Below, one piece after another: positions 24,254-60,365 of a stretch of 64,000 nucleotides of DNA. The stretch's first letter is position 1; each line of letters starts with the position of its first letter. Made by a program: the position numbers and the translations under genes. Source of the stretch: Eledone cirrhosa (lineage: Eukaryota). Location: assembly GCA_964016885.1 (NCBI GenBank), contig OZ024750.1, forward strand, positions 37,138,001 to 37,202,000, given 5' to 3'. Below the pieces are notes generated by a model, which saw only the letters and a program-made list of their open reading frames with translations, was not told where the DNA came from and did no database searches.

Positions 24254-24730
<477 letters not shown>

Positions 24731-24924
24731 GATAAATCTACCAAGAGTTTACGGTAGTGTCCAATCCGTATGAAGAACTCAATGTAATCCGGATATCATG
24801 GAAAGAAGAGATGCAATGAAAAATCACTTTCGGTGAAAGATAAACGGAATACAGAGTCAAGATAAAATATTTAAAAAATAGTGAATAAAACAATGAAACA
24901 GTTCCTTATATTAAACAAAAAAAG

Positions 24925-25078
24925 TTCATTATTTAACGATCGTTTCTAGGATATATATGTGTTGGAATTGGCATGCATATTCAACAGATCTATGTACAAA
25001 ATTATACAAAATTATACAAACTATCAAAATTAAATATACATACCAACACATATATATGCCGTCTTCAGAAATAATGAA
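24925..25078 (-). ncRNA. Family B hammerhead with long helix II
   Basis: Reverse complement of the motif at 55442-55595. Confidence 0.75.
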
Positions 25079-25679
25079 ATATATTTATTGATAATAACAA
25101 CAATTCAAAATTACAGGTCTGTTTGGGAACAGAGTTCAAATTGACCAATGAAAACACAAAAAGTTTATACAGTTAGGTGTATGTATATATGTAAGTAACT
25201 TCGTTCACAGATATGCATAAAAATATATATGTGTTCACATGCATGCGCATGCCGAAAAGATGTATGTAAATACAAAAATTCAGGGCTAATGTCTCTGTAT
25301 GTTTATAATCTACAGATAAAATACGTATATGCATATAAACATATAAATATAAAAATAAATATATACACATTCATATACTCACACATATACATACATTCAC
25401 ACACACACGCGCGTATACGCATAAACATACACACAACCACGAACATACATACACACACACACCTCCACATACATATATGTGTATATACTATTATCATAAG
25501 CATATGGACATTAATGCGCGCACATAAACACTGCCACACACATTAAGATCCAGATACAGAAAGTAGGTGGGGGGGGGGGAAGAGGTCAGTATTTACAGGT
25601 GTCAGCAAACTGCCTATTTATAAATGTATCTATAAATTTAGAAATAAAAAGAAAAAGAAAAAAGAAAAATATAAAGAAA

Positions 25680-28562
<2,883 letters not shown>

Positions 28563-28570
28563 ATTCACAC

Positions 28571-28601
<31 letters not shown>

Positions 28602-28888
28602 TATAAACAAGTAAAATATAAAATATACATCGATATACATACATATACATATATATATACATATATATATATATACATATATATACATACATATACATAC
28701 ACATATACATAAACACATACATACACATACATATACATACACACACCATATAAATACACATACACATACACACACGCATACATATAGAGACACATACATA
28801 TACACATAAAAATACATAGACATATACATATATACACACATGTATATATATATATATATACACACATACATACATATATACATTCACA

Positions 28889-28952
<64 letters not shown>

Positions 28953-28956
<4 letters not shown>

Positions 28957-31900
28957 AATTAAGTTAAAAATGTACATCCACATATGTATACTGAAATACT
29001 AGTATGCATATGAATACACACACGTGTACATATGTAGATGTACCGAGTTTTTCACTGGACACTTTACTGTGAGTGTCCAGCTATTCTGTATGTAAACACA
29101 CACACAAACCGGTTTTCGAGGAAACACCTTTCCTCTATTCTCCAGAAAGCCAGACAAGGAATATTGGACTAGTTTCGATGTTGTTACATCTCATCAGCAA
29201 TATTTACCTATCTTCCGGCCTTTCTAGAGAATCGTAAAAGCACATATCGTTATATGCTTTTTCTATGAAAATTAGCAATGGGCAGACCAATTTGCATAGA
29301 GCGTGAGTACGTACCGGTTCAGCGGAGACGATAAAAACAAATAACGAAACGAAATTAAATTTCGTTTCGTTTGTAACTCACTTTTGTATGACTGACGCTT
29401 AAACAATTAAGTTAAAAATGTACATCCACATATGTATACTGAAATACTAGTATGCATATGAATACACACACGTGTACATATGTAGATGTACCGAGTTTTT
29501 CACTGGACACTTTACTGTGAGTGTCCAGCTATTCTGTATGTAAACACACAGACAAACCGGTTTTTAGAGTCATGCTGGTTTTCGAGGAAACACCTTTCCT
29601 CTATTCTCCAAAAAGCCAGACAAGGAATATTGGACTAGTTTCGATGTTGTTACATCTCATCAGCAATATTTACCTATCTTCCGGCCTTTCTAGAGAATCG
29701 TAAAAGCACATATCGTTATATGCTTTTTCTATGAAAATTAGCAGTGGGCAGACCAATTTGCATAGAGCGTGAGTACGTACCGGTTCAGCGGAGACGATAA
29801 AAACAAATAACGAAACGAAATTAAATTTCAATATTCCTTGTCTGGCTTTCTGGAGAATAGAGGAAAGGTGTTTCCTCGGAAACCAGTATGACTCTAAAAA
29901 CCGGTTTGTCTATGTGTTTACATACAGAATAGCTGGACACTCACAGTAAAGTGTCCAGGGAAAAACTCGGTACATCTACATATGTACACGAGTGTGTATT
30001 CATATGCATACTAGTATTTCAGTATACATATGTGGATGTACATTTTTAACTTAATTGTTTAAGCGTCAGTCATACAAAAGTGAGTTACAAACGAAACGAA
30101 ATTTAATTTCGTTTCGTTATTTGTTTTTATCGTCTCCGCTGAACCGGTACGTACTCACGCTCTATGCAAATTGGTCTGCCCACTGCTAATTTTCATAGAA
30201 AAGGCATATAACGATATGTGCTTTTACGATTCTCTAGAAAGGCCGGAAGATAGGTAAATATTGCTGATGAGATGTAACAACATCGAAACTAGTCCAATAT
30301 TCCTTGTCTGGCTTTCTGGAGAATAGAGGAAAGGTGTTTCCTCGAAAACCAGTATGACTCTAAAAACCGGTTTGTCTGTGTGTTTACATACAGAATAGCT
30401 GGACACTCACAGTAAAGTGTCCAATGAAAAACTCGGTACATCTACATATGTACACGTGTGTGTATTCATATGCATACTAGTATTTCAGTATACATATGTG
30501 GATGTACATTTTTAACTTAATTGTTTAAGCGTCAGTCATACAAAAGTGAGTTAAAAACGAAACGAAATTTAATTTCGTTTCGTTATTTGTTTTTATCGTC
30601 TCCGCTGAACCGGTACGTACTCACGCTCTATGCAAATTGGTCTGCCCACTGCTAATTTTCATAGAAAAAGCATATAACGATATGTGCTTTTACGATTCTC
30701 TAGAAAGGCCGGAAGATAGGTAAATATTGCTGATGAGATGTAACAACATCGAAACTAGTCCAATATTCCTTGTCTGGCTTTCTGGAGAATAGAGGAAAGG
30801 TGTTTCCTCGAAAACCAGTATGACTCTAAAAACCGGTTTGTCTGTGTGTTTACATACAGAATAGCTGGACACTCACAGTAAAGTGTCCAGTGAAAAACTC
30901 GGTACATCTACATATGTACACGTGTGTGTATTCATATGCATACTAGTATTTCAGTATACATATGTGGATGTACATTTTTAACTTAATTGTTTAAGCGTCA
31001 GTCATACAAAAGTGAGTTACAAACGAAACGAAATTTAATTTCGTTTCGTTATTTGTTTTTATCGTCTCCGCTGAACCGGTACGTACTCACGCTCTATGCA
31101 AATTGGTCTGCCCACTGCTAATTTTCATAGAAAAAGCATATAACGATATGTGCTTTTACGATTCTCTAGAAAGGCCGGAAGATAGGTAAATATTGCTGAT
31201 GAGATGTAACAACATCGAAACTAGTCCAATATTCCTTGTCTGGCTTTCTGGAGAATAGAGGAAAGGTGTTTCCTCGAAAACCAGTATGACTCTAAAAACC
31301 GGTTTGTCTGTGTGTTTACATACAGAATAGCTGGACACTCACAGTAAAGTGTCCAGTGAAAAACTCGGTACATCTACATATGTACACGTGTGTGTATTCA
31401 TATGCACACTAGTATTTCAGTATACATATGTGGATGTACATTTTTAACTTAATTGTTTAAGCGTCAGTCATACAAAAGTGAGTTACAAACGAAACGAAAT
31501 TTAATTTCGTTTCGTTATTTGTTTTTATCGTCTCCGCTGAACCGGTACGTACTCACGCTCTATGCAAATTGGTCTGCCCACTGCTAATTTTCATAGAAAA
31601 AGCATATAACGATATGTGCTTTTACGATTCTCTAGAAAGGCCGGAAGATAGGTAAATATTGCTGATGAGATGTAACAACATCGAAACTAGTCCAATATTC
31701 CTTGTCTGGCTTTCTGGAGAATAGAGGAAAGGTGTTTCCTCGAAAACCAGTATGACTCTAAAAACCGGTTTGTCTGTGTGTTTACATACAGAATAGCTGG
31801 ACACTCACAGTAAAGTGTCCAGTGAAAAACTCGGTACATCTACATATGTACACGTGTGTGTATTCATATGCATACTAGTATTTCAGTATACATATGTGGA

Positions 31901-34317
31901 TGTACATTTTTAACTTAATTGTTTAAGCGTCAGTCATACAAAAGTGAGTTACAAACGAAACGAAATTTAATTTCGTTTCGTTATTTGTTTTTATCGTCTC
32001 CGCTGAACCGGTACGTACTCACGCTCTATGCAAATTGGTCTGCCCACTGCTAATTTTCATAGAAAAAGCATATAACGATATGTGCTTTTACGATTCTCTA
32101 GAAAGGCCGGAAGATAGGTAAATATTGCTGATGAGATGTAACAACATCGAAACTAGTCCAATATTCCTTGTCTGGCTTTCTGGAGAATAGAGGAAAGGTG
32201 TTTCCTCGAAAACCAGTATGACTCTAAAAACCGGTTTGTCTGTGTGTTTACATACAGAATAGCTGGACACTCACAGTAAAGTGTCCAGTGAAAAACTCGG
32301 TACATCTACATATGTACACGTGTGTGTATTCATATGCATACTAGTATTTCAATATACATATGTGGATGTACATTTTTAACTTAATTGTTTAAGCGTCAGT
32401 CATACAAAAGTGAGTTACAAACGAAACGAAATTTAATTTCGTTTCGTTATTTGTTTTTATCGTCTCCGCTGAACCGGTACGTACTCACGCTCTATGCAAA
32501 TTGGTCTGCCCACTGCTAATTTTCATAGAAAAAGCATATAACGATATGTGCTTTTACGATTCTCTAGAAAGGCCGGAAGATAGGTAAATATTGCTGATGA
32601 GATGTAACAACATTGAAACTAGTCCAATATTCCTTGTCTGGCTTTCTGGAGAATAGAGGAAAGGTGTTTCCTCGAAAACCAGTATGACTCTAAAAACCGG
32701 TTTGTCTGTGTGTTTACATACAGAATAGCTGGACACTCACAGTAAAGTGTCCAGTGAAAAACTCGGTACATCTACATATGTACACGTGTGTGTATTCATA
32801 TGCATACTAGTATTTCAGTATACATATGTGGATGTACATTTTTAACTTAATTGTTTAAGCGTCAGTCATACAAAAGTGAGTTACAAACGAAACGAAATTT
32901 AATTTCGTTTCGTTATTTGTTTTTATCGTCTCCGCTGAACCGGTACGTACTCACGCTCTATGCAAATTGGTCTGTCCACTGCTAATTTTCATAGAAAAAG
33001 CATATAACGATATGTGCTTTTACGATTCTCTAGAAAGGCCGGAAGATAGGTAAATATTGCTGATGAGATGTAACAACATCGAAACTAGTCCAATATTCCT
33101 TGTCTGGCTTTCTGGAGAATAGAGGAAAGGTGTTTCCTCGAAAACCAGTATGACTCTAAAAACCGGTTTGTCTGTGTGTTTACATACAGAATAGCTGGAC
33201 ACTCACAGTAAAGTGTCCAGTGAAAAACTCGGTACATCTACATATGTACACGTGTGTGTATTCATATGCATACTAGTATTTCAGTATACATATGTGGATG
33301 TACATTTTTAACTTAATTGTTTAAGCGTCAGTCATACAAAAGTGAGTTACAAACGAAACGAAATTTAATTTCGTTTCGTTATTTGTTTTTATCGTCTCCG
33401 CTGAACCGGTACGTACTCACGCTCTATGCAAATTGGTCTGCCCACTGCTAATTTTCATAGAAAAAGCATATAACGATATGTGCTTTTACGATTCTCTAGA
33501 AAGGCCGGAAGATAGGTAAATATTGCTGATGAGATGTAACAACATCGAAACTAGTCCAATATTCCTCGTCTGGCTTTCTGGAGAATAGAGGAAAGGTGTT
33601 TCCTCGAAAACCAGTATGACTCTAAAAACCGGTTTGTCTGTGTGTTTACATACAGAATAGCTGGACACTCACAGTAAAGTGTCCAGTGAAAAACTCGGTA
33701 CATCTACATATGTACACGTGTGTGTATTCATATGCATAATAGTATTTCAGTATACATATGTGGATGTACATTTTTAACTTAATTGTTTAAGCGTCAGTCA
33801 TACAAAAGTGAGTTACAAACGAAACGAAATTTAATTTCGTTTCGTTATTTGTTTTTATCGTCTCCGCTGAACCGGTACGTACTCACGCTCTATGCAAATT
33901 GGTCTGCCCACTGCTAATTTTCATAGAAAAAGCATATAACGATATGTGCTTTTACGATTCTCTAGAAAGGCCGGAAGATAGGAAAATATTGCTGATGAGA
34001 TGTAACAACATCGAAACTAGTCCAATATTCCTTGTCTGGCTTTCTGGAGAATAGAGGAAAGGTGTTTCCTCGAAAACCAGTATGACTCTAAAAACCGGTT
34101 TGTCTGTGTGTTTACATACAGAATAGCTGGACACTCACAGTAAAGTGTCCAGTGAAAAACTCGGTACATCTACATATGTACACGTGTGTGTATTCATATG
34201 CATAATAGTATTTCAGTATACATATGTGGATGTACATTTTTAACTTAATTGTTTAAGCGTCAGTCATACAAAAGTGAGTTACAAACGAAACGAAATTTAA
34301 TTTCGTTTCGTTATTTG

Positions 34318-34322
<5 letters not shown>
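28953..34322 (+). mobile_element. Retrozyme-like tandem array, 466-bp unit: ~1.9 inverted units (28953-29829) + ~9.6 forward units (29829-34322)
   Basis: Exact 466 periodicity (HHR cores at 30264, 30730, 31196, 31662, 32128, 32594, 33060, 33526, 33992; minus-strand cores at 29191-29197 and 29657-29663); units near-identical. Confidence 0.93.
30257..30301 (+). ncRNA. Type I hammerhead ribozyme of the 466-bp unit
   Basis: aatattg-CTGATGA-gatg(taacaa)catc-GAA-ACTAGT-C-caatatt; perfect core, GUC triplet, palindromic helix III; distal stem ttctctagaaaggccgg/ctggctttctggagaa. Confidence 0.93.
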
Positions 34323-34385
<63 letters not shown>

Positions 34386-34429
34386 TATAAACACACTCAT
34401 GTATATACACACATACACATACAAACCCG

Positions 34430-34492
<63 letters not shown>

Positions 34493-34524
34493 ATACACAC
34501 ACATACACATACACACATACAAAG

Positions 34525-34561
<37 letters not shown>

Positions 34562-34795
34562 TACACACATACATATACGCATATATACACATACATACAC
34601 ATCCATGTATGCGTATACACATACAAACACAACCACACGCTCACACAACTCAGACATACATAATTAAAGGGATATACATACACATGTATACATATATAAA
34701 TAGAGATACATATACACATATAAATATATACACACACACACGCATATACATACACATACATACACACATACATATATATACACACACATATACAT

Positions 34796-34866
<71 letters not shown>

Positions 34867-34972
34867 TATATAAAAATAAATAAATAAAATAAATAAATAA
34901 ATAAATAAATTAATACACACAGTCAGACAAATATGCACACACATACATGTACACATATATATACACATACAT

Positions 34973-35045
<73 letters not shown>

Positions 35046-35085
35046 CATATACATACATATATATATACACATACACACATCAACT

Positions 35086-35118
<33 letters not shown>

Positions 35119-35121
<3 letters not shown>

Positions 35122-35499
35122 AAAGTTATATTTAAATTGTTGGGTTACAACTAGTAAATATTTATAACTGATATAAAAGCACTCAACAATTATTTGGAGT
35201 ATATTTACGATACTAAATAAATGGAAACTACATCTACAAAAGCATATCTATCTCATCATACATACCTCAGGGACATCACACTAACAATATGCTATGCCCT
35301 CCTCAGACAAAATACTGCCAAATCAACTTTTTAAATACAAGTCGATGTTGAACGGTATGTCAAATCTATTTATTTATAAAACTGTCTATATTGTATTTTG
35401 TCTGAAGAAGGCACAACACATCGTCAATATGATATCCCTGAAACATATATAATGAAACAAACATGGCCCTACAAATACAGCCTCCATTCATTCAACATC

Positions 35500-35502
<3 letters not shown>
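35119..35502. mobile_element. Family C inverted-repeat cassette inside PLE B, heavily T>C mutated on the + strand
   Basis: Arms ~35200-35315 and ~35395-35502 compared with unmutated copies at 39812-40268 and 45620-45807. Confidence 0.85.
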
Positions 35503-35555
<53 letters not shown>

Positions 35556-36925
35556 TCCCATATACATGCGCACATACGTACATATATACACATACACACA
35601 TATACACACAGACGTACATATGCGCATACATATACATACACACATATACCCACATAAATACATAGATACATATATATATATATATACATATATATATACA
35701 CATATATATACATATATATACATACATATATATATACACACAATCATACACCCTTATTTACATGCGCACATATGTATTTTTATACTCACATACAAACACC
35801 CGAACATACATACCTACCTACATATACATACATACATCCACGCTTACAAATGCAAATAATAATAGGGGGGGAGGGGGGATTATAGTAAATATAGGTTTCA
35901 AGAAACATAGAATATTAATCTGCATTTAGATCATAATATGTGTTTACATAGTAGTTTCAGTATTAGGAAATGTAAGAAAGAAGGCAAAATTATGCATATT
36001 AATATAAGTAGACTATTAATTATAGGTTAACTAAATTAAAGATAGTTATTATATTGATTTCTAAGGTGTATACTACTTAGGTTTATAATATTTGAAGCGG
36101 AATTTTGAAGTTAAATAGTAGTAGAGTATTAATTATAGTATAACTAAATTAAAATTATTAACGTTATGGTATCAATATTAGGAAATGAATTTAGTAATAG
36201 GGAAAAAAACCAAATAAAGTATTACATCGGTAGTAGAATATAAATTATAGGTTAACTAAATTAAAAATTATATATTAATTTCTATAGTATATGTTAATTA
36301 GGTTTATAATAATTAAAACAGATATTGTATTTTATCTATAGTAGAATATAATTATAGGTAAACAGAAATTAAAATTAATATATACACATATATATATACA
36401 CACATATATATATACATATATATATATATATACATATACACACACATATATATATATATACATATTTTTTCAAAAATTGCAAAGAATATATTAACTAGGT
36501 ATACATCCAAAACCTATCTCACTCTATAATTACATGACACTCTGCAATCCATCTGTATTAGGATTTTAATTTTAAGCCAATTAAATTAAATTTTTAGGTT
36601 AACCAAATTAAAACCAAATTATAAATATATTTCTAAAATGTACAATAATTAGGTCTATAATATTAAAAAATATTTCTCTGTCATTGAATACACGATATTT
36701 TGTTATATTTTATCTGTAAAGGAACTTTAATAAAAGGTTAAATAAATTAAAATAAATCTATAAATTAATTTACGAAGTATATATTAGTAATATTTAAAAG
36801 TTTTTCACAATTTATGATTACACAATATTTTATAATCTCATCTGTAGTAGAATTTTAATTAAATTAAATTTATAGGTTAACTAACATTTAAATTAAATTA
36901 TATATTAATTTCTAAAATAATTTTA

Positions 36926-39362
36926 TTAATTAGGTTTATAATATTTAAATGTTTTTCTTAGTTTATGATTACACGATATAATTAATTCCTGTCGTTTATT
37001 TAATAAGATATCCTTAGATTTCATTATTTCAAATAGTTCTTGGGAACATAATCTACATTCATTTCTATTATTTTGATAAGGGGTGGCTCTTTTGAGCACA
37101 CTCCAGGTCATATCATATTCTATATTCTTATTTTTATAACTATTGATTTTTTCTGCTAGAGATGTTGTATTAGCCAGTGCGGCATTTTTAAAAACTATGT
37201 TTGTGGGTATTAAACCTTACCTTAAAATTGTTAGAAGTAGCTCCTATATATGAGCAAATAGAATCTTTAGTTTTAACATTACATTTATAAACTATGTTGT
37301 TAACAAGACAATTTCCTTTTAATGGGCAGTTTGCTTTGTTTCTACAGTTACAACCTTTCGTTAATTCTGTATTTGAGGAGATATTATGGTTAGTTTGATG
37401 TATTGGTGGTATACTTATGGTATTCTTACATTTATATGCATTATAGGCGCTTATATTTTGTTTTATGTTATTGGTTGTTGAGTATGAGAATTTAACTGTA
37501 GACCTATTTAAGATTTGATGGTATTTGTGGTTTGGCGGGAAGTTTTTCTCTAGGATATAAACAAATTTTTTAGCAATATTATCCTTAATTTGTAAATTAA
37601 ATGGAGCATTATACCAAGTAACTCGTCTATTACGGTTTCTATGTTGTTTATTATTTTTATAGGTTGTATCGTGATGTTTACTAGGAGGATTAATGTTAAT
37701 GATCTCACCACGCACATTTTTAGTTAGATTTATAGATTTAGGTGTTTTATCTTGTTTATTAGGAGTTTTATTATTAACATTTATTAGAGTTGTATGATGA
37801 GTAGTTTTTTGAGAGTTACTATACTTTATATTAGAAGAGTTGTTGGTATTTTGGGGTATAGTGTGGGTGGCATTTAGGTGTGTACTTATCATTTGGTGTT
37901 TGTTGGTAATATTAGGTTGTATGTTTATAGTATTTTTAGTAGAAGGTATATATTCTAATCTATTTTTGTGGCCACTTCTATCTAGAGCTTCGTTATAGAA
38001 GGTCGCATTTTTATCAAATACATCTTGGTTAGAAGAAAGGTTAGAAATTCTAAGTGATATATTATATGCAAGGTTTTTAAGGATAGATTTAGGGTGATTA
38101 GATTGTGAGTGTATGTAGTGTAAGTTTTGGTTGGGTTTATGGTAAGGTTGGTAGATACCCGTAGCTAAGTCTAAAGTTATATCTAGGAAATTAACTACTT
38201 TACTTGTTTTTTCAAAAGTAATATGAAGACTATAATAGTCTTTAAGGAAAGTTCTAATATGCTTTTTGTTTTTTTCTATTTCTGAAAGGCTAAGGTTGTT
38301 GGAAAGAAGAAGACAGTCATCACGATATAAACCACCTTTAAGGTGGGGAAAGGAGGCATTTATGTTGAAAAGGAGAAAGAGGCCCACAAGATCAGTAATT
38401 TGGGCGGAATCGCTTGAACCCATAGTAATATCAAATAGATTACTATATGTGTTTCTGGTCCAGTATTCATTCTGAAATTCAATAAGTGTTAGTCTAGCAT
38501 GTGTAATAATATTAATGTCATCCAAAGTTAAGTTAGATCTATTTTTAGCAAATATCAATGCTTTGTTCAGGAGTATAGGTGATATAGAAGAATAGTAATT
38601 ATCTATATCAAATTGTAGAAATGAAGCAGAAGATTTACATCTAATATTTTTAAACCAGTTAATTACCTGGGAAGTGTTTTCCCAGAGTGGTAAATTAACG
38701 TGTTTTCTTATTTGTGGGATGACTCTATCCAAAATTTTTTTGCTAATTATTCCAATATCAGATTTGGAGGGACATATAAGTCTTATAGAAGGATTTGAGT
38801 TAAAGTTTGATTTATGATCCTTCAGGTTGAAGTGTGGTCTTTTCAATGCCAAAGGTTCAGTTCTATCTTCAATGTTTAGTTTTTTTACTATGTTGTGTGT
38901 TTTGTTGTTGATGTTGGTGAGTGACGCATTATTAGATTTTTTATAATTTTTCCTGAGTTCTTTATATATGAACTCATTATAATCTTCAATATCCATGTGA
39001 TACAAGTTACCAGTTTTGTCCGAGTGGACATGGATTTTTTTAGACTTTTTTAGGTCCAATAGGGTAGAATCAAGGTCCTTTTGAAAGACAGATTTATACT
39101 TCTTAAATTTGAGGTGTTTAATTAAATTAAAAAGGTCTTTCTCAAAGTCTTCAAGCAAAGAGTTGTGTGGTGGATTCTTGTAAGTATTGAAATCATACAT
39201 ATATTTCCTATCTGCACATTTAGATTTTTTATCGAAGTGGTAGGCCCTCCATCTAACTCTTCTGATAAATTGGTTAGTTTTTTGAATCATAAGGAGTAAG
39301 AAGTCATCCTTAGAAGGTATTGGTATGTTCTTTAAAGAGGTTCCCAAGTATTGTTTTTCCAT
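36926..39362 (-). pseudogene. PLE family B RT + GIY-YIG ORF with one frameshift in a homopolymer near 37190
   Basis: MEKQYLG start; SDKT, QFDIDNYYSS, TMGS, YRDD; CNCRNKANCPLKGNC; IVY..YIGAT; C-terminus continues in the 36926-37111 ORF. Confidence 0.9.
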
Positions 39363-39604
39363 TGTGATATGGATGATGGACAATTGAAAGAGCTCAACTA
39401 AATGTATATGGGTTTACAAAATCATACATATATATGTATATACATAAATATAAAATTAACACACACATACAGTACAAAAATACGAATATTTCCGTGAAAA
39501 TAGGAGCAAAATTATGTAGATAAATCTACCAAGAGTTTACGGTAGTGTCCAATCCGTATGAAGAACTCAATGTAATCCGGATATCATGGAAAGAAGAGAT
39601 GCAG

Positions 39605-39761
39605 TGATGTCCCTGAGGTATGTATGATGAGATAGATATGGTTTTGTAGATGTAGTTTCCATTTATTTAGTATCGTAAATATACTCCAAATACTTGTTGA
39701 GTGCTTTTATATCAGTTATAAATATTTACTAGTTGTAACCCAACAATTTAAATATAACTTT

Positions 39762-39813
<52 letters not shown>

Positions 39814-40330
39814 GGAAAGTTATATTTAAATTGTTGGGTTACAACTAGTAAATATTTATAACTGATATAAAAGCACTCGACAAGTATTTGGAGTATATTT
39901 ACAATATTAAATAAATGGAAACTATATTTATAAAACCATATTTATTTCATTATATATATTTCAGGGATATCATATTAACAATATGCTATGCCTTCCTCAG
40001 ACAAAATACAATATAAACAGTTTTATAGATAAATAGATTCGACATACCGTAACAACATCGACTTGTATTTGAAAAAGTTATGCCAATTCAACTTTTTCAA
40101 ATACAAGTCGATGTTGTTACGGTATGTCGAATCTATTTATCTATAAAACTGTTTATATTGTATTTTGTCTGAGGAAGGCATAGCATATTGTTAATATGAT
40201 ATCCCTGAAATATATATAATGAAATAAATATGGTTTTATAAATATAGTTTCCATTTATTTAATATTGTATATATATATATATATATTTGTAGTTGATGTG
40301 TGTATGTGTATATATATATGTATGTATATG

Positions 40331-40369
<39 letters not shown>

Positions 40370-40481
40370 ATGTATGTGTATATATATGTGTACATGTATG
40401 TGTGTGCATATTTGTCTGACTGTGTGTATTAATTTATTTATTTATTTATTTATTTTATTTCTTTATTTTTATATATATATG

Positions 40482-40530
<49 letters not shown>

Positions 40531-40647
40531 ATGTATATGTGTGTGTATATATATGTATGTGTGTATGTATGTGTATGTATATGTGTGTGTGTGTGTATAT
40601 ATGTATGTCTATGTATGAGTATGTATATGTATGTATGTGTATGTATA

Positions 40648-40720
<73 letters not shown>

Positions 40721-40729
40721 TATATTATA

Positions 40730-40760
<31 letters not shown>

Positions 40761-40792
40761 CTTTGTATGTGTGTATGTGTATGTTGGTGTAT

Positions 40793-40841
<49 letters not shown>

Positions 40842-40897
40842 CGGGTTTGTATGTGTATGTGTGTAAATACATGAGTGTGTTTATATATATGTATAGA

Positions 40898-40974
<77 letters not shown>

Positions 40975-40993
40975 TGTGAATGTATATATGTAT

Positions 40994-41028
<35 letters not shown>

Positions 41029-41269
41029 CATGTGTGTATATATGTATATGTATATGTATTTTTATGTGTATATGTATGTGTCTCTATATGTATGCGTGTG
41101 TGTATGTGTATGTGTATTTATATGGTGTGTGTATGTATATGTATGTGTATGTATGTGTTTATGTATATGTGTATGTATATGTATGTATATATATGTATAT
41201 ATATATATATGTATATATATATGTATATGTATGTATATCGATGTATATTTTATATTTTACTTGTTTATA

Positions 41270-41310
<41 letters not shown>

Positions 41311-42105
41311 ATATATATATATATATATATTTTCTTAATATTTTTCTTTTTTCTTTTTCTTTTTCTTTTTCTTTTTATTTCTAAATTTATAGATACATTT
41401 ATAAATAGGCAGTTTGCTGACACCTGTAAATACTGACCTCTTCCTCTTCCCCCCCCCCCACCTACTTTCTGTATCTGGATCTTAATGTGTGTGGCAGTGT
41501 CTATGTGCGCGCATTAATGTCCATATGCTTATGATAATAGTATATACACATATATGTGTGTGGAGGTGTGTGAGTGTATGTATGTTCGTGGTTGTGTGTA
41601 TGTTTATGCGTATACGCGCGTGTGTGTGTGAATGTATGTATATGTGTGAGTATATGAATGTGTATATATTTATTTTTATATTTATATGTTTATATGCATA
41701 TACTTATTTTATCTGTAGATTATAAACATACAGAGACATTAGCCCTGAATTTTTGTATTTACATACATCTTTTCGGCATGCGCATGCATGTGAACATATA
41801 TATTTTTATGCATATCTGTGAACGAAGTTACTTACATATATACATACACCTAACTGTATAAACTTTTTGTGTTTTCATTGGTCAATTTGAACTCTGTTCC
41901 CAAACAGACCTGTAATTTTGAATTGTTGTTATTATCAATAAATATATTTCATTATTTCTGAAGACGGCATATATATATGTGTTGGTATGTATATTTAATT
42001 TTGATAGTTTGTATAATTTTGTATAATTTTATACATAGATCTGTTGAATATGCATGCCAATTCTAACACATATATATCCTAGAAACGATCGTTAAATAAT
42101 GAACT

Positions 42106-42110
<5 letters not shown>
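39605..42110 (+). mobile_element. Inverted tail of the family B insertion (copy of its 3' UTR starting inside the mutated C cassette and ending after the HHR at 41948-42103)
   Basis: 39605-39765 is the reverse complement of 35119-35280; 40270-42110 mirrors the B UTR segments. Confidence 0.8.
39812..40268. mobile_element. Unmutated family C inverted-repeat cassette (HHR core CTGAGGA at 40169)
   Basis: Near-perfect inverted repeat centred at ~40080, TA flanks. Confidence 0.85.
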
Positions 42111-43308: not shown

Positions 43309-44376
43309 CTAAAAATAGAAATTGAGAACAACCATAGAATAGTCAATTTCCTAGATATAACATTAAATCTCAACACATGTCTTCACTATCCATTTCACAA
43401 GTTGAATGAAAACTTAAACTATGTCAGCTTTAACTCTAACCACCCCAGATCTGTCAAAAACACTATAGTAAACTCTGTTCAAAAACGTATCTCTAGAATC
43501 TCGTCTAATAGAAAGATTTTCGACGAAAAAGCCCAGTACTACAATGAAGCGTTAGCTAGAGCAGGATATAGTGATAAGATTATGTACATAGATAATGATA
43601 GACAAACTAAACAAAATAACAACTATTTTAATTACGGCCACAACCTTAACAACTATAATAGAAAGCATTACAATAATTCCAAAAGCCAAAAAAGAAATAG
43701 AACTAGGAACATAATATGGTTTGCCCCCCCTTTCTCACTAAACATTAAAACCCACATCGCTAAACTATTTTTTAAAGCTCTTGATAATCGCTTCCCTAGA
43801 ACACATAGGTATCACTCAATTTTCAATAGACATACTATAAAATTAACCTACTCATCCACCAAAAATTTAGCACAAAATATTAATAGAATAAATAATAGGA
43901 ACTTAAAACCTAGCGATAATAGCATAAATAATATACAAGTTAACAAATGTAACTGTAGAGATAGATCTAAATGTCCGTTAAATAACAACTGCTTAGTTAA
44001 AAATATAATATACAACTGTAATGTTAAAACGGACTCTAATTCTTTTAACTACGTCGGTTCCACATCGACGGAATTTAAACTTCGCTATAATAACCACAAG
44101 AATTCTTTCACAGATCCAAGCAAAAAATCTTCAACAGCACTATCAGGCGTACTCTGGCAACTTAGGCAAGATAACGTTAGATATTCGACGGCTTGGAATA
44201 TAGTCTCAAGAGGGATTCCTTTTAATTCATCCTCTGAGACATGTGACCTCTGCGCGGAGGAGATATTCTTTATACTAAAATCTAAAAATTCCCTTAATCT
44301 ACGGACAAATTTATTCAGTTGCTGCAAACATAGATTGAACTCAACTTTTAAATATAAATTTAAATTTAAAATGTAG
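43309..44376 (+). pseudogene. 5'-truncated Naiad-type PLE ORF (family C): RT thumb, linker, GIY-YIG
   Basis: LKIEIENNHRIVNFLDITLNL.., RNRTRNIIWFAPPF, CNCRDRSKCPLNNNC, IIY..YVGST, CDLC. Confidence 0.9.
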
Positions 44377-45698
44377 TATATTTAGTTTGATTTGTAATTA
44401 TTTGGGAAACTAGCCGATAAATCTTTCGATTTCTTCTTTTTATTCTTCTTTTCATTTTTATTTTATTTTAAACATTCTTCATGAAAAATTAAACTACCCT
44501 AAAAGTTGATGCTCCAAATATATCGAATAAACGTTACACTAGATAAACTTCTATATTAAATATAAGAACATATGTAGACCAAATGGGCATCCTAAACTTT
44601 TGAAATGATTTCTGCTAGACGCGATTTGGTAAATAATTTTTAGCTTTATCTGTTTTCGACTCTGATGCTAATTGGCAATATATTGTCAATTAATTTTGAA
44701 GGGTTGATCTTTGTGGTCGATTTGCGTGGCATATTATGTTTTTATTTTTATTATTTTAATATTTTTTAATATTTTTAATATTTTCATTTTTAATATGTAA
44801 TATTTTTTAGTTTTCTATTTTATTTATTTGTTTATTATTATTATTATTATTATTATTATTTTTTGTTTTTGTTTCTGATATTTTTATTAATATATTGAAA
44901 TCTGTTCTCTATTTCTGCTTGATAGATAATCATGTAGAGTAAAGACAAGAATAGTATTGTTAAAATTAATATAGACTCTATATATATGTGTATATATATA
45001 CATATATGTATACTTAAATTTTTATAGCACAATGAGAATGTTCTCCGTGTGAAATAGGGGTTTGCAGAGTTGATCACGTAAATTCACATCGATGTTTGTA
45101 GTTATCATATAAACATATGAATTTTTAAAACTAGACATAAGATCATTACTTTTCACACATTATAGATACGTGTCTCATTCAGGAATACTGATATTTACAT
45201 TATAGTGCCTGGTTTTTATACGAACTAATATTTCTACATTAAAACATAGGGTTTTTAAATTCTGCCTCGCCTATGTCTGGTTACTTTTCATTTTTCTCTC
45301 TATATAACGGCTGGTTTCTTTCCTAACCACATATATCTCCCTTACATTAATACTAGAGCTAAATAAATAAATAAATAAATAAATAAATGTATCATTGATA
45401 CGTCGTTCAACTACCTACTTTTCTCTATATATATCTATCTCTATCTATTTCCTCTCTCTATATATCTCTCTCTGTTTCTTTACATGAAGTTCTTCTCTTT
45501 ATCTATCTTTCCATCTCTCTATTTTGTTGCATGCATTTCTTCTTTTTCTTCTTTTTCTTCGTTTTCTTTCTTTCTTTCCTTCTTTCTTTCTTTCTTTCTT
45601 TCTGTTTACAATTTTTCACTGCCAAATCAACTTTTTCAAATACAAGTCGATGTTGAACGGTATGTCAAATCTATTTATCTATAAAACTGTCTATATTG

Positions 45699-45773
45699 TA
45701 TTTTGTCTGAAGAAGGCATAACATATTGTTAATATGATATCCCTGAAATATATATAATGAAATAAATATGGTT
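45699..45773 (+). ncRNA. Family C hammerhead (also at 46451-46525 and 40161-40225)
   Basis: tattttgt-CTGAAGA-agg..catatt(gtt)aatatg..cct-GAA-ATATATAT-A-atgaaata; AUA triplet. Confidence 0.7.
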
Positions 45774-45804
45774 TTATAAATATAGTTTCCATTTATTTAA
45801 TATC

Positions 45805-45841
<37 letters not shown>

Positions 45842-47089: not shown

Positions 47090-49300
<2,211 letters not shown>

Positions 49301-49304
<4 letters not shown>

Positions 49305-51344
49305 AACTCAGAAAAAATTATAAAAAATCTAATAATGTGTCACTCACCAACATCAACAACAAAACACACAACATAGTAAAAAAACTAAACATTGAAGATA
49401 GAACTGAACCTTTGGCATTGAAAAGACCACACTTCAACCTGAAAGATCACAAATCTAACTTTAACTCAAATCCTTCTATTAGACTTATATGTCCCTCCAA
49501 ATCAGATATTGGAATAATTAGCAAAAAAAACTTTAGATAGAGTCATCCCACAAATAAGAAAACACGTTATTTTACCACTCTGGGAAAACACCTCCCAGGT
49601 AATTAACTGGTTTAAAAATATTAGGTGTAAATCTTCTGCTTCTTTCCTACAATTTGATATAGATAATTACTATTCTTCTATATCACCTATACTCCTGAAC
49701 AAAGCATTGATATTTGCTAAGAATAGATCTAACTTAACTTTGGATGACATCAATATTATTACACATGCTAGACTAACACTTATTGAATTTCAGAATGAAT
49801 ACTGGACCAGAAACACATATAGTAATCTTTTTGATATTACTATGGGTTCAAGCGATTCCGCCCAAATTACTGATCTTGTGGGCCTCTTTCTCCTTTTCAA
49901 CATAAATGCCTCTTTTCCCCACCTCAAAGGTGGTTTATATCGTGATGACTGTCTTCTTCTTTCTAACAACCTTAGCCTTTCAGAAATTGAAAAAAACAAA
50001 AAACATATTAGAACTTTCCTTAAAGACTATTATAATCTTAATATTACTTTTGAAAAAACAAGTAAAGTAGTAAATTTCCTAGATATAACTTTAGATTTAG
50101 CTACGGGTATCTACCAACCTTACCATAAACCTAACCAAAACTTACATTACATACACTCACAATCTAATCACCCTAAATCTATCCTTAAAAACCTTGCATA
50201 TAATATATCACTTAGAATTTCTAACCTTTCTTCTAACCAAGATGTATTTGATAAAAATGCGACCTTCTATAACGAAGCTCTAGATAGAAGTGGCCACAAA
50301 AATAGATTAGAGTATATACCTTCTACTAAAAATACTGAAAGCATACAACATAATATTACCAACAAACACCAAATGAAAAGTACACACCTAAATGCCACCC
50401 ACACTATACCCCAAAATACCAAATCTTCTAATATAAAGTATAGTAACTCTCAAAAAACTACTCATCGTACAACTCTAATAAATATTAATAATAAAACTCC
50501 TAATAAAAAGGATAAAACACCTAAATCTACAAATATAACTAAAAATAGTTGTGGTGAGATCATTAACATTAATCCTCCTAGTAAAAATCACGATACAACC
50601 TATAAAAATAATAAAAATAATAAACAACATAGAAACCGTAATAGACGGGTTACTTGGTATAATGCTCCTTTTAATTTACAAGTTAAGGATAATATTGCTA
50701 AAAAATTTTTTTATATCCTTGAGAAAAACTTCCCGCCAAACCACAAATACCATCAAATCTTAAATAGGTCTACAGTTAAATTCTCATATTCTACAACAAA
50801 TAACATAAAACAAAATATAAGTGCATATAATGCATATAAATGTAAGAAAACCATAAGTATACCACCAGTACATCAAATTAACCATAATATCTCCTCAAAT
50901 ACAGAATTAACGAAAGGATGTAACTGTAGAAACAAAGCAAACTGCCCATTAAAAGGGAATTGTCTTGTTAACAACATAGTCTATAAATGTAATGTTAAAA
51001 CTAAAGATTCTATTTGCTCATATATAGGAGCTACCTCTAACAATTTTAAGACAAGGTTTAATACCCACAAGCATAGTTTTAAAAATGCCGCACTGGCTAA
51101 TACAACATCTCTAGCGGAAAAAATCAATAGTTATAAAAATAAGAATATAGAATATGATTTGACCTGGAGTGTGCTCAAAAGAGCCACCCCTTATCAAAAT
51201 AATAGAAATGAATGTAGATTATGTTCCCAAGAACTATTTGAAATAATGAAGTCTAAGGATATCTTATTAAATAAAAGACAGGAATTAATTATATCGTGTA
51301 ATCATAAACTAAAAAAAACATTTAAATATTATAAACCTAATTAA
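49301..51344 (+). pseudogene. PLE B ORF, 5'-truncated, frameshift in A-run at ~49525
   Basis: ORF track 49337-49540 + 49707-51344 jointly match 56450-58381. Confidence 0.9.
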
Positions 51345-51908
51345 TAACATTATTTTAGAAATTAATTTAATTTAAATGTTAGTTAACCTATAAATTTAAT
51401 TTAATTAAAATTTTATTACAGATGAGAATATAAAATATTATGTAATCATAAATTGTGAAAAACCTTTAAGTATTACTAATATATACTTAGTAATTTAATT
51501 TATAGATTAATTTTAATTTATTTAAACCTTTTATTATAATTCTTTTACAGATAAAATATAACAAAATAATATCGTGTATCCAATGACAGAGAAATAATTT
51601 TTAGTATTATAGACCTAATTAATATACATTTTAGAAATATATTTATAATTTGGTTTTAATTTTAATCAACCTAAAAATTTAATTTTAATTTGCTTAAAAT
51701 TAGTATCCTTATACAGACGAATTGCAGAATGTCATGTAATCATAGAATGGGATGTGTTTTGGATATATACCTAGTTAATATATTCTATGCAATTTTTTGA
51801 AAAAGATATGTATATGTATATGTGTATGTGTATGTGTGTGTGTATGTATATGTGTATATATGTATATATATATATATATATGTGTATATATATGTATATA
51901 TGTATGTG

Positions 51909-51939
<31 letters not shown>

Positions 51940-52996
51940 TAATTTTGATTTCTATTTGCATATAATTATATTATGCTATTGATAAAATACAATATCTGCT
52001 TTATGTATTGTATACCTAATTAACATATACTATAGAAATAAATATATAATTTTTAATTTAGTTAACCTATAATTTATATTCTACTACCGATGTAATACTT
52101 TATTTTATTTGTTTTTTCCCTATTACTAAATTCATTTCCTAATATTGATACCATAACGTTATTAACTTTAATTTAGTTATACTATAATTAATACTCTACT
52201 ACTATTTAACTTCAAAATTCTGCTTCAAATATTATAAACCTAACTAATTTACACCTTAGAAATCAATATGTTAACTATCTTTGGTTTAGTTAACATAAAA
52301 TTAATGGTATACTTATTTATTTTGAGATGCATAGATTTTGCCTTAGTTCTTGTTTGTTGTATTTCCTAACACTGAAACTATGTAAAAACATACATTGGAT
52401 AAAGATACGGAAAATATTCTATGTTTCTTGAAACATATATTTACTATGATCCCCTTCTCCAAACCCCCCCTTTCCCCCATACTATTATCATCTGTATTTG
52501 TAAGCGTGTATGTATGAATATATATGTAGGTAGGTGTCTATATAGGTTTGGGTATTTATATCTAAATGTAAAAATACATATATGCGCATGCAAATATGAA
52601 TGTAAGATTGTGTGTGTATATATGAGTATGTGTATGTATGTATATATGTGTATATATGCATGAATATATGTATGTGTATGTGAATGTGTGTATATATATG
52701 TGTATGTATATATATATATATATGTATATATATGTATATATGTATATATAGGAATATATATATATGTATATATATGTATATGTATATGTGTGTGTATGTA
52801 TGTGTGTGTATGTGTGTTGTATATATATGTATGTCTCTCTATTTATATGTCTATCTTAGTATCTATGTGATATATGTGTGTGTGTGTGCATGTATGCACA
52901 TATATGTGTTTATGTGTATATATGTGTATGTGTGTATATATGTGTGTGTGCACACATATATATATGTGAGTGTGTATATGTGTCTGTGTATATGTA

Positions 52997-53050
<54 letters not shown>

Positions 53051-53440
53051 TGTCTATGTGTGAATATATGTCTATATTCGTATGTGTGTATATATGTATG
53101 TATATGTTTATATGTATATATATATATATATATGTGTATGTATATATATATGTATATATATATATATATATATTATTTTTTATTATTATAATATAACTTA
53201 TGTGTATGTGTGTATATGTGAGGTTGTGTATGTGTATATAATATGTGTATATATAAGTGTAAAAAAATATATATATATGTGCATGTCTGTTTTTTATGTG
53301 TGTGTATATATATATATATATATATACGTGTGTGTATATATATGTATATGTGGGTGTTTGTATGTGTATTTATGGTGGTATGAGTGTGTGGGTATCTATA
53401 TATATATATATGTATGAATGTGTGTGTGTATATATGTATA

Positions 53441-53487
<47 letters not shown>

Positions 53488-53846
53488 ATATATATCTCTA
53501 TTAATGCGTGTATATATGTATATGCATATGCCTTTTTATTTTTATTTGTATGTCTGAGTTAGGTGAGGTTGTAGTGGTGTTTTTATGTATATACGCATAT
53601 ATGGATGCGTATGTATTTGTATATATGAGTATAAGTAAGTGCATATGTATGTATGATTATATATCTAATTCTATGTATGAATATACATGTATATATATGT
53701 GTGTATGTAAGTTGTGTGTGTATGTATGTATATGTCTATGTGTGTATATATATATGTATGTATATCGATGTACGTGTATGTATGTACATGTATGTATATG
53801 TATGTGTGTATGTATGTGTATGTATATTTATGTGTATGTATATATG

Positions 53847-53901
<55 letters not shown>

Positions 53902-54123
53902 CTTTATTATTTATTTTTTATATATATATGTATGTGTGTATGTGTTGTGTGTGTGTGTGTGTGTGTATATATATCTTTATATATGTGTATGTGTATGTTC
54001 GTGTAGGTGTATGTGTGTGTATGAATTTATATGTATGTGTGTATGTGTGTATGCGTATATATTTCTATGTGTGTGTACATGTATGTATGTGTGTATATGT
54101 GTATGTGTGTGTATGTATGTATG

Positions 54124-54156
<33 letters not shown>

Positions 54157-54187
54157 GTTATATATATATATGTATATGTATATGTGC

Positions 54188-54218
<31 letters not shown>

Positions 54219-54468
54219 TATGTTTTTCTATTTGTATATGTATGTGTGTATAGGTATATACCTTTCTCTTTGTATTTCTAAGTTGTGTGATAGTGTAGTG
54301 GTGTTTGTATGTATATACCGATATATAGATGCGTAAGTATTTGTCTGTATGTATATTAGTATGTAAGTGTTGTATATGTGCATGTATGTGTGTGGTTATA
54401 TATATCTGTTCTATATAGTATGTGTGATTATATGTATATGTGTGTGTATATGTACGTGTATATACATA

Positions 54469-54539
<71 letters not shown>

Positions 54540-55441
54540 ATTTGTATGTATATGTGTATATGTATGTATGTGTGTATATGTATATGTTTATATATGTGTG
54601 TGTATGTATGTTCTTAGTGTGTATGTGTGTATATGTATGTATGTGTTTGTATATGTGTGTATATTTATGTATGTGTGTGTGTGTGTATATGTGTATATAT
54701 GTGTATATTATATATATATGTATATGTGTGTGTATATATATATATATATATGTAGGTGTATATATGTATATATATATATTTATTTTCTTGATATATTTCT
54801 TTTTTCTTTTTTCTTTTTTCTGTTTTCTTTCTATTCTTTCCTCTTTAATGTTTATTTATTTATTATTTTTTATTTTTATTTTTTTATTTTCTTAGTTTAT
54901 AGATACATCTATATTAGGCAGTCAGCTCAGACCGTTGAATACTGACCTCTCCCCCCCCCCTCCCACCTAATTTCTGTATCTTGATCTAAAAATGTGTGTG
55001 CCAGTGTTTTATGTGAGTGAATTAATATCCATGTGCTTATGATTTTATATCCACATATATAAATGTGAGTGGGGGTGTGTGTGTATTTGTATGTTTGTGG
55101 TTATGTGTATATTTATGCATATACGCGCGTGTATGTGTGATTGTACGGATATGTGTGAGTATGAAAAAATATATTTATATACTTAATTTCATAAGTGTCA
55201 ATACGCATCTTATCTGTGCATTATAAAGTTACAGAGACATTAACCTTGAAATTTTATTATTTGCATCCATCCCTTTAGTATGCGTATACAAATTATACAT
55301 ACATTTTTGTAAAATATGTGTAAGGGTTTTACATGTATATACACACACCGAACTGCATTTAACCCTTTGTGTTTTCATTGGTCAATTTTGTTCCCAAACG
55401 GACCTGAAATTTTGAATTGTTGTTATTATCAATAAATATAC

Positions 55442-55595
55442 TTCATTATTTCTGAAGACGGCGTATATATGTGTTGGTATGTATATTTAATCTTGATAAT
55501 TTGTATAATTTTGTATAATTTTGTACATAGATCTGTTGAATATGCATACCAATTCTAACACATATATATCCTAGAAACGATCGTTAAATAATGAA
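55442..55595 (+). ncRNA. Family B hammerhead with ~115-nt helix II (also 62551-62704 +, 41948-42103 +, 63351-63505 -)
   Basis: ttcattattt-CTGAAGA-[55459-55573]-GAA-ACGATCGT-T-aaataatgaa; perfect 10-bp helix I. Confidence 0.75.
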
Positions 55596-55938
55596 CTTTT
55601 TTTGTTTAATATAAGGAATTGTTTATTCATTATTTGTTTAATATTTTATCTTGACTCTGTATACCGTTTATCTTTCACCGAAAGTGATTTTTCATTACAT
55701 CTCTTCTTTCCATGATATCCGGAATACATTGAGTTCTTCATACGGATTGGACACTACCGTAAACTCTTGGTAGATTTATCTACATAATTTTGCTCCTATT
55801 TTCACGGAAATATTCGTATTTTTGTACTGTATGTGTGTATTAATTTTATGTTTATGTATATACATATATATATGTATGATTTTGTAAACCCATATACATT
55901 TAGTTGAGCTCTTTCAATTGTCCTTCATCCATATCACA

Positions 55939-58381
55939 ATGGAAAAACAATATTTAGGAACCTCCTTAAAAAACATACCAATACCTTCTAAGGATGACTT
56001 CTTACTCCTTATGATTCAGAAAACTAATAATTTTATCAGAAGGGTTAGATGGAGAGCCTACCACTTCGATAGAAAATCTAAACAAGCAGATCGGAAATAT
56101 ATGTATGATTTCAATACTTACAAGAATCCACCACACAACTTTTTACTTGAAGACTTCGAGAAAGACCTTTTTAATTTAATTAAACACCTCAAATTTAAAA
56201 AGTATAAATCCGTCTTTCAAAAGGACCTTGATTCTACCCTATTGGACCTAAAAAAGTCTAAAAAAATCCATGTCCACTCGGACAAAACTGGTAACTTGTA
56301 TCATATGGATATTGAACATTATAACGAGTTCATATATAAAGAACTCAGAAAAAATTATAAAAAATCTAATAATGTGTCACTCACCAACATCAACAACAAA
56401 ACACACAACATAGTAAAAAAAACTAAACATTGAAGATAGAACTGAACCTTTGGCATTGAAAAGACCACACTTCAACCTGAAAGATCACAAATCTAACTTT
56501 AACTCAAATCCTTCTATTAGACTTATATGTCCCTCCAAATCAGATATTGGAATAATTAGCAAAAAAATTTTAGATAGAGTCATCCCACAAATAAGAAAAC
56601 ACGTTATTTTACCACTCTGGGAAAACACCTCCCAGGTAATTAACTGGTTTAAAAATATTAGGTGTAAATCTTCTGCTTCTTTCCTACAATTTGATATAGA
56701 TAATTACTATTCTTCTATATCACCTATACTCCTGAACAAAGCATTGATATTTGCTAAGAATAGATCTAACTTAACTTTGGATGACATCAATATTATTACA
56801 CATGCTAGACTAACACTTATTGAATTTCAGAATGAATACTGGACCAGAAACACATATAGTAATCTTTTTGATATTACTATGGGTTCAAGCGATTCCGCCC
56901 AAATTACTGATCTTGTGGGCCTCTTTCTCCTTTTCAACATAAATGCCTCTTTTCCCCACCTCAAAGGTGGTTTATATCGTGATGACTGTCTTCTTCTTTC
57001 TAACAACCTTAGCCTTTCAGAAATTGAAAAAAACAAAAAACATATTAGAACTTTCCTTAAAGACTATTATAATCTTAATATTACTTTTGAAAAAACAAGT
57101 AAAGTAGTAAATTTCCTAGATATAACTTTAGATTTAGCTACGGGTATCTACCAACCTTACCATAAACCTAACCAAAACTTACATTACATACACTCACAAT
57201 CTAATCACCCTAAATCTATCCTTAAAAACCTTGCATATAATATATCACTTAGAATTTCTAACCTTTCTTCTAACCAAGATGTATTTGATAAAAATGCGAC
57301 CTTCTATAACGAAGCTCTAGATAGAAGTGGCCACAAAAATAGATTAGAGTATATACCTTCTACTAAAAATACTGAAAGCATACAACATAATATTACCAAC
57401 AAACACCAAATGAAAAGTACACACCTAAATGCGACCCACACTATACCCCAAAATACCAAATCTTCTAATATAAAGTATAGTAACTCTCAAAAAACTACTC
57501 ATCGTACAACTCTAATAAATATTAATAATAAAACTCCTAATAAAAAGGATAAAACACCTAAATCTACAAATATAACTAAAAATAGTGGTGGTGAGATCAT
57601 TAACATTAATCCTCCTAGTAAAAATCACGATACAACCTATAAAAATAATAAAAATAATAAACAACATAGAAACCGTAATAGACGGGTTACTTGGTATAAT
57701 GCTCCTTTTAATTTACAAGTTAAGGATAATATTGCTAAAAAATTTTTTTATATCCTTGAGAAAAACTTCCCGCCAAACCACAAATACCATCAAATCTTAA
57801 ATAGGTCTACAGTTAAATTCTCATATTCTACAACAAATAACATAAAACAAAATATAAGTGCATATAATGCATATAAATGTAAGAAAACCATAAGTATACC
57901 ACCAGTACATCAAATTAACCATAATATCTCCTCAAATACAGAATTAACGAAAGGATGTAACTGTAGAAACAAAGCAAACTGCCCATTAAAAGGGAATTGT
58001 CTTGTTAACAACATAGTCTATAAATGTAATGTTAAAACTAAAGATTCTATTTGCTCATATATAGGAGCTACCTCTAACAATTTTAAGACAAGGTTTAATA
58101 CCCACAAGCATAGTTTTAAAAATGCCGCACTGGCTAATACAACATCTCTAGCGGAAAAAATCAATAGTTATAAAAATAAGAATATAGAATATGATTTGAC
58201 CTGGAGTGTGCTCAAAAGAGCCACCCCTTATCAAAATAATAGAAATGAATGTAGATTATGTTCCCAAGAACTATTTGAAATAATGAAGTCTAAGGATATC
58301 TTATTAAATAAAAGACAGGAATTAATTATATCGTGTAATCATAAACTAAAAAAAACATTTAAATATTATAAACCTAATTAA
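55939..58381 (+). pseudogene. PLE B full-length RT + GIY-YIG ORF with a single frameshift in an A-run at ~56420
   Basis: ORFs 55918-56433 and 56450-58381 join to give the same protein as 36926-39362. Confidence 0.9.

Positions 58382-58945: not shown

Positions 58946-58976
<31 letters not shown>

Positions 58977-60033: not shown

Positions 60034-60083
<50 letters not shown>

Positions 60084-60329: not shown

Positions 60330-60365
<36 letters not shown>

Follow-up and report, generated by a model that had tools for sequence, protein, structure and literature searches.

APOBEC DNA editing is known to have been fixed in LTR retrotransposons, where it changes G to A on the cDNA and has no requirement for a duplex. 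The A>G changes reported here would be similar in that hypermutation by a host deaminase is inherited in copies of a retroelement, and would differ in that the changes are made on duplex RNA. The closest precedent is the ADAR-type A-to-G hypermutation of avian retroviruses (the U3 of Rous-associated virus and an inverted repeat of avian leukosis virus), as outlined in summarising passages of PMC12925331, where an inverted repeat in a reverse-transcribed RNA likewise has a large share of its As changed to G. Unlike the retroviral cases in those passages, the present locus belongs to a non-viral Penelope-like element (PLE) in an assembled genome, is found at dozens of loci, bears serial lineage-specific edits and has a ribozyme within its duplex. 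A search of titles and abstract openings, with most subscription papers outside it, found no literature on edited PLE copies fixed in a genome, and the term ADAR does not occur in a 2026 retrozyme preprint (10.64898/2026.07.22.740005).

Two published descriptions of PLEs are relevant to the locus. The Hydra clade is characterised, in the relevant passages of Craig et al. (2021, PMC8557442), by RW(R/K) and DKT motifs, a CxCx5C linker, CxxC and CxH, along with GIY-YIG at the C terminus. The host element studied here (family B) shares with this clade the RT motifs, the C-terminal GIY-YIG, (TA)n targets, a hammerhead (HHR; in B a putative one) in the pLTR and an inverted 5' copy, a placement made by motifs and architecture; neither nested cargo nor editing is mentioned in those passages. 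Minimal PLE hammerheads, as presented in parts of Cervera and De la Pena (2014, PMC4209133), have in common with the donor family (family C) a type I core, a long helix II, an extra base after position 9, a short palindromic helix III and a pLTR location. In comparison with the hammerheads in those parts, the C copy described below is a passenger in the 3' UTR of another family, is paired with its own complement and has an edited core, and helix II of its subfamily closes by A-U or G-U instead of G10.1-C11.1.

The stretch of DNA analysed here (the window) comprises 64,000 nt on contig C10 of a 3.0-Gb assembly and is a nest of PLEs and HHR repeats within (TA)n (Table 1; C1, C2, C3, C9, C10 and C13 denote contigs, and C alone the element family). 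By eye, the translations of B contain the Hydra-clade motifs RWR, DKT, CNCRNKANC, CRLC, CNH and IVY..YIG, and (TA)n targets, a pLTR and an inverted 5' copy are all present. Pfam returned no family for any of the four window ORF proteins, and a PDB sequence search with the window proteins gave nothing meaningful. B has a putative HHR of its own, upstream of its 3' end, in which the core, a 10-bp helix I and a palindromic helix III are found in 17 of 17 matches (duplicates included), with the core intact in all, together with a helix II that is very long (~130 nt) and, ahead of GAAA, a junction of atypical form. The long helix II and the atypical junction are kept between subfamilies B1 and B2 (window 41946-42105 on the plus strand, 24925-25078 on the minus strand, 55440-55600 and 62550-62700).

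Table 1. Positions in the window of the host element, the edited cassette and related B and C copies
Feature	Position	Strand	Remark
Host element B1 (Hydra-like PLE)	24725..39607	-	Interrupted by later inserts at ~25810-28530 and 28952-34324
B1 ORF, RT and C-terminal GIY-YIG	36950..39413	-	Window copy frameshifted near 37190
B1 3' pLTR, containing the putative HHR of B, intact (core start 25068)	24725..25640	-	
Edited cargo cassette, a fold-back fragment of PLE family C inside a (TA)n tract of the B 3' UTR	35118..35504	-	Empty-site B copies have only (TA)n here
Single-stranded C 3' end of cassette, unedited (0/33 As in majority of copies)	35118..35206	-	
Sense arm of hairpin (15/41 As are G in majority of copies)	35207..35315	-	
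Minimal type I hammerhead of family C, in sense orientation in B RNA	35249..35314	-	Stem I 35314-35307 with 35256-35249; core CTGAGGA 35306-35300; GAGG 35268-35265
Loop, 77 nt, unedited (0/29 As in majority of copies)	35316..35392	-	
Antisense arm, first transcribed in B RNA (17/45 As are G in majority of copies)	35393..35501	-	
Start of B1 inverted 5' tail, a partial edited sense arm (12/29 covered As are G)	39604..39765	+	
Unedited C hairpin of later origin, with 179 bases identical between its arms, intact core, only in B1 tail	39812..40268	.	
Rest of B1 inverted tail: B1 3' UTR and pLTR with B's putative HHR (core 41958), cut off by LINE fragment	40290..42110	+	
5'-truncated C element (ORF end, 3' UTR, HHR at 45707 unedited), from the donor family and used as unedited reference	43309..45808	+	
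Tandem B2 copies, another subfamily, cassette absent	49295..62895	+	

Several other elements lie in the window. Two tandem arrays (28952-34324 with 466-bp units, which sits in the B1 3' UTR, and 2536-3970 with 310-bp units) have a hammerhead core and a palindromic helix III in each unit and an inverted partial copy at one end each, a retrozyme-like organisation with PLE-style insertion in (TA)n. A short family with a CTGATGA/GAAA core is found in an inverted arrangement in (TA)n at 48506-49150. An APE-RT LINE has an open frame of 1076 codons (6071-9301, plus strand), and a 98.7% identical 3' fragment of it (42111-43310, minus strand) interrupts the tail pLTR of B. A third Hydra-like PLE ORF of 713 codons occupies 17367-19508 on the plus strand, with pLTR copies carrying a CTGAGGA motif at 17097, 21358, 25897 and 28410. 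In B and in another PLE, the microsatellite 3' UTRs have far more G than C on the sense strand (28571-28950, 34330-35090, 40290-41330, 59630-61890 and 19681-21212). In the TA tracts at the insertion site of the cassette, 21 TG and 2 CA interruptions were counted; edited (UA)n hairpins are a possible cause, though a skew is seen in other TA fields of the window as well.

On the B sense strand the cassette runs from an antisense arm through a 77-nt loop to a sense arm with the HHR and then the C 3' end, with a (TA)n tract on either side. It was also considered as the pLTR of B itself, which was rejected since B has its own pLTR and HHR downstream. The unedited HHR of family C has an 8-bp helix I, a long helix II hairpin and a palindromic helix III (ATATATAT), and the unedited C copies of the window read GAAA at 40000 (-), 40169 (+), 45707 (+) and 46459 (+). 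Among free C copies, of which we sampled 30 (the first in a list of 27,093 matches, these 30 being from contig C1), the core CUGANGA plus GAAA is intact in 26, and N7 may be T, G, A or C; a core kept with a free N7 in these copies supports a selected motif. Helix II variants among the free copies keep pairing, as judged by eye. The G10.1-C11.1 closing pair is present in the CCCC-GAAA C subfamilies, and the CCCT subfamily of the cassette has T at 11.1. No Rfam match was found in the window at the gathering threshold, which is probably not surprising for a minimal HHR variant. Independent C insertions share identical fold-back junctions (locus L043; loci L075-L077), so that the inverted-copy junction is stereotyped, and the tails share a single end point, which is what an internal start site for RT would produce.

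The initial annotation had read the cassette HHR on the B sense strand as CTGAGGA...GAGG in place of GAAA, and this reading is borne out at the positions in Table 1. The CTGAGGA part does no damage: it has G at the free position N7 and is a natural C variant. In hammerhead numbering, which we take from general rules for these ribozymes, A14 and A15.1 are G (within GAGG), and the cleavage-site A17 is G at window position 35257. By the same general rules, changes such as A14>G, A15.1>G and A17>G would abolish hammerhead cleavage, and self-cleavage is predicted to be disabled in every cassette copy read. Our literature search for hammerhead core-mutation rules found no paper stating them. That the same mutated arm recurs in the inverted tail was also correctly noted, the tail arm being 98.9% identical to that of the body.

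The cassette was found at at least 37 loci, in agreement with the earlier statement that it had been part of the mobilised RNA. In a DNA search, 40 of 1140 candidates were scored and all 40 were full hits to the cassette, and the exact junction pattern gave 39 matches, comprising 38 cassettes and one unedited free hairpin (L043). The alignment contained 43 copies, namely the tail in the window and 42 from fetched loci, which correspond to 34 places after merging of body and tail pairs. The fetched copies read GAGG (39), GGGG (1), GAAG (1) or GAGA (1), the window tail reads GAGG, and four further partial copies, from three loci, comprise three with GAGG and one with GGGG, the latter at a junction. 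GAAA is thus kept in 0 of 47 cassette copies, and A17>G is present in all 43 aligned ones, so the initial suggestion to check whether multi-copy variants with the cassette are all HHR-dead has, at the level of the core sequence, an affirmative answer; four cassette copies are on small contigs and may be haplotype duplicates. Four of the 20 cassette loci that were extended upstream span the whole ORF, one of them with an uninterrupted frame of 828 codons. B1 copies mostly have an empty site: with marker positions paired by hand on contigs C1, C2 and C3 up to 341 Mb, 36 of 61 copies were empty, 13 had the cassette, 2 had other C inserts and 10 were unpaired, and the last, once fetched, were mostly empty sites with marker variants. 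The tandem copies of the window do lack the cassette, as had been noted, but they could not serve as a pre-insertion control and were rejected as such, since they belong to another subfamily (B2, ~90% identical to B1 overall and 83% in the unique 3' UTR stretch); the right control is the empty-site B, which is the majority.

In a tree of a 586-base stretch of the B 3' UTR (53 rows), the cassette copies fall in one young B1 clade (support 100/98) together with seven empty-site copies. This poorly resolved tree is too weak to show or reject a single origin of the cassette; the case for a single origin is based on the shared junction and on 29 near-fixed edits. Extra edits are common to groups of copies; some of these groups also appear in the weakly resolved UTR tree, and there are conflicting sites, of the sort that recurrent editing or recombination would produce. 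At one locus (L067, G000:C9:27133200-27138800), the body of the copy contains a further short hairpin, formed by a second fold-back of the edited arm, and both of its arms carry the edited core.

All majority changes in comparison with unedited C are A>G (32/32), on one strand (B sense) and in both arms, the direction of change being given by unedited free hairpins with the same junctions (L043 for this cassette, L075-L077 for a second one described below). They affect 32 of 86 duplex As and none of 62 unpaired As (Fisher p = 1.5e-9), and stop exactly at the duplex borders. Of these 32, 29 are near fixed, and each copy has 27 to 38 edits. ADAR favours U or A as the 5' neighbour of the edited A and avoids G, and favours G as the 3' neighbour. 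In the arms, 14 of 28 As with a 5' A were edited, 17 of 38 with a 5' T, 1 of 10 with a 5' C and 0 of 9 with a 5' G (A/T 31/66 versus C/G 1/19, p = 9e-4), and 2 of 5 As with a 3' G were edited, a class with few sites. Later variation has the same character, since of the 57 duplex As that were left, 26 are read as G in one copy or more, versus 5 of 86 for duplex T>C and 2 of 62 for unpaired As, and the flanking B UTR, examined as a control in 30 cassette copies, varies symmetrically (A>G 13/201, T>C 15/245). Thus, the A>G changes were likely made by ADAR on B RNA and fixed in DNA by reverse transcription, and editing as the source of the changes, already proposed in the initial annotation, is retained.

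The cluster might instead have arisen by RT hypermutation, by a process at the DNA level or as an assembly artefact, and some (TA)n fields of the window do show strand-biased TG interruptions. Such origins are highly improbable, as the changes end at duplex borders, occupy one strand in both arms and have an ADAR-like 5' bias. Moreover, the same edits recur on many contigs, and contigs of one public run, which may be the assembly's own sample, match the edited stretches with 2 differences over 80 bases; the four public sequencing runs compared mostly show an abundant unedited C family.

A second edited C cassette is present at the same B1 site at one locus (L074, G000:C13:18736000-18745999). 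Its junction is different and is common to three unedited free copies (L075-L077). Derivation of the second cassette from the first was rejected because of this junction, its distinct C subtype, and edits at positions that form the loop in the first cassette. The second cassette has 18 and 15 one-arm A>G changes, with edits common to body and tail, and it keeps GAAA and has A17>G. Ten edit sites are common to both cassettes in the sense arm (p = 0.002) and six in the other arm (p = 0.10), and we read these as hot spots. Four A>G changes of the second cassette are mirrored as T>C in the other arm, which suggests that the C RNA was edited before insertion, or repair between the arms.

We next consider the claim that inactivation of the internal ribozyme let the full-length B RNA survive and be carried, in which case the hammerhead would cut B RNA and edited cores would have been selected because only uncut RNA is copied. 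The uniform loss of GAAA and gain of A17>G agree with such selection, as does the finding that both RNA-passaged cassettes are core-broken (2/2), the second also by A17>G. However, core changes are expected by chance at the given density of editing: with 13-15 edits among 41 As, the chance that at least one of six core As is edited is 0.92-0.95, or 0.78 when matched for context, so that two dead cores in two events carry little weight. In the founder all three core As in an editable context are edited (context-matched p ~0.06), and the least-edited copies (27-29 edits) already have the full set of core changes. A partly edited ancestor with an intact core was not found among the cassette copies, so the order of edits is not readable, and in the dead-core lineage core edits went on accumulating (A6>G in 10 copies), which is what neutrality would predict.

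Unedited C inserts with an intact core would be the natural comparison. The five examined in B1 (window 39812-40268, L029, L064, L069 and L070) are each at one locus, with L064 duplicated locally, and among them there was no amplified B copy with an intact sense HHR, the observation that had been named as contrary to the initial claim. This single-locus distribution fits selection of core edits; nevertheless, these are weak controls, as the inserts seem to have arrived later, in copies that perhaps never acted as templates (in L069 one arm only). Copying across the cut site is routine for C and B cores that are intact. For C, there are 9,975 exact matches in which core and cut site are both spanned and the core is intact, and all 30 sampled copies (the same first 30 on contig C1) run through the site; for B, the putative HHR is intact in the 17 of 17 matches mentioned above. 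The caveat on both is that cleavage followed by ligation, or circular RNA, would also give DNA spanning the cut site.

The predicted structure also weighs against a cutting ribozyme. The fold predicted for the unedited hairpin has 109 bp of pairing at -177 kcal/mol (-161 kcal/mol when edited), which would sequester the HHR core in the duplex, and forcing the HHR fold is predicted to cost ~90 kcal/mol in the unedited and 85 kcal/mol in the edited form. In the tests presented in parts of PMC4209133, a minimal PLE HHR showed no cleavage as a monomer and little as dimers, and passages of PMC6765202 agree on the dependence on dimers. For an anole PLE, the relevant sections of PMC11167929 report that the HHR needs protein, that HHR mutants have no effect on PLE insertion in vitro and that the main substrate is unprocessed RNA. 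The initial annotation had allowed that the consensus C HHR might be inactive anyway, and this looks to be the case, given a duplex-locked core whose partner strand is transcribed first and a minimal, dimer-type motif. Overall, selection of core edits by self-cleavage is quite unlikely, and the proposal that ribozyme inactivation permitted carriage is not supported.

Editing might have permitted carriage in another way, by weakening or masking the long perfect duplex, so that the RNA would evade small-RNA or dsRNA surveillance or would be read through more easily by the RT, and not via the ribozyme. I-U pairs weaken duplexes, and only edited hairpins were seen mobilised (2/2) while unedited ones were not, although the same pattern is expected if ADAR simply edits every such RNA. 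Because the fixed G-U hairpin is still predicted to be stable and was further edited, yet the lineage spread, we also regard this possibility as unlikely. The two ideas can be combined into a broader proposal, in which ADAR acts as a licence for retroelement cargo: a PLE RNA with a self-complementary ribozyme fragment would be transposable only after editing breaks the core or masks the duplex, and each round of transposition would write new inherited edits, giving a dated phylogeny of editing. We consider this proposal conceivable but doubtful.

From the sequence comparisons we conclude that the cassette is probably a heritable serial record of ADAR editing, with loss of the ribozyme as an incidental by-product. 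C inserted in the (TA)n of a B1 copy as a stereotyped inverted pair, as is shown by the empty sites and by a free, unedited hairpin whose junction is identical, and that B1 copy later acted as a template, as its amplification shows. In the B RNA the two arms are predicted to form the 109-bp duplex that buries the hammerhead, and ADAR then probably changed roughly one in three of the duplex As, with A14, A15.1 and the cut-site A17 among them; the pattern is seen directly, and the enzyme is the one that best fits it. The RT of B would have copied inosine as G, after which the lineage reached the loci counted above. Since G-U pairs are predicted to preserve the hairpin, editing probably continued in later rounds, each adding lineage-specific A>G changes of the kind observed.

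The role of PLE hammerheads is an open question; going by the numbers of copies, they do not keep the RNA that contains them from being reverse-transcribed across the cut site. Under the licence model, if it were true, ADAR would promote the capture of cargo by retroelements, a step that the data do not require. More generally, A-to-I edits, which are usually transient, have here most likely become heritable DNA changes at multiple loci via a non-viral retroelement, in which a founder layer is followed by layers specific to lineages. The cassette copies would record the site preference of ADAR in the cells where B elements transpose, and they make available a natural series of substrates, from unedited through once edited to repeatedly edited hairpins.
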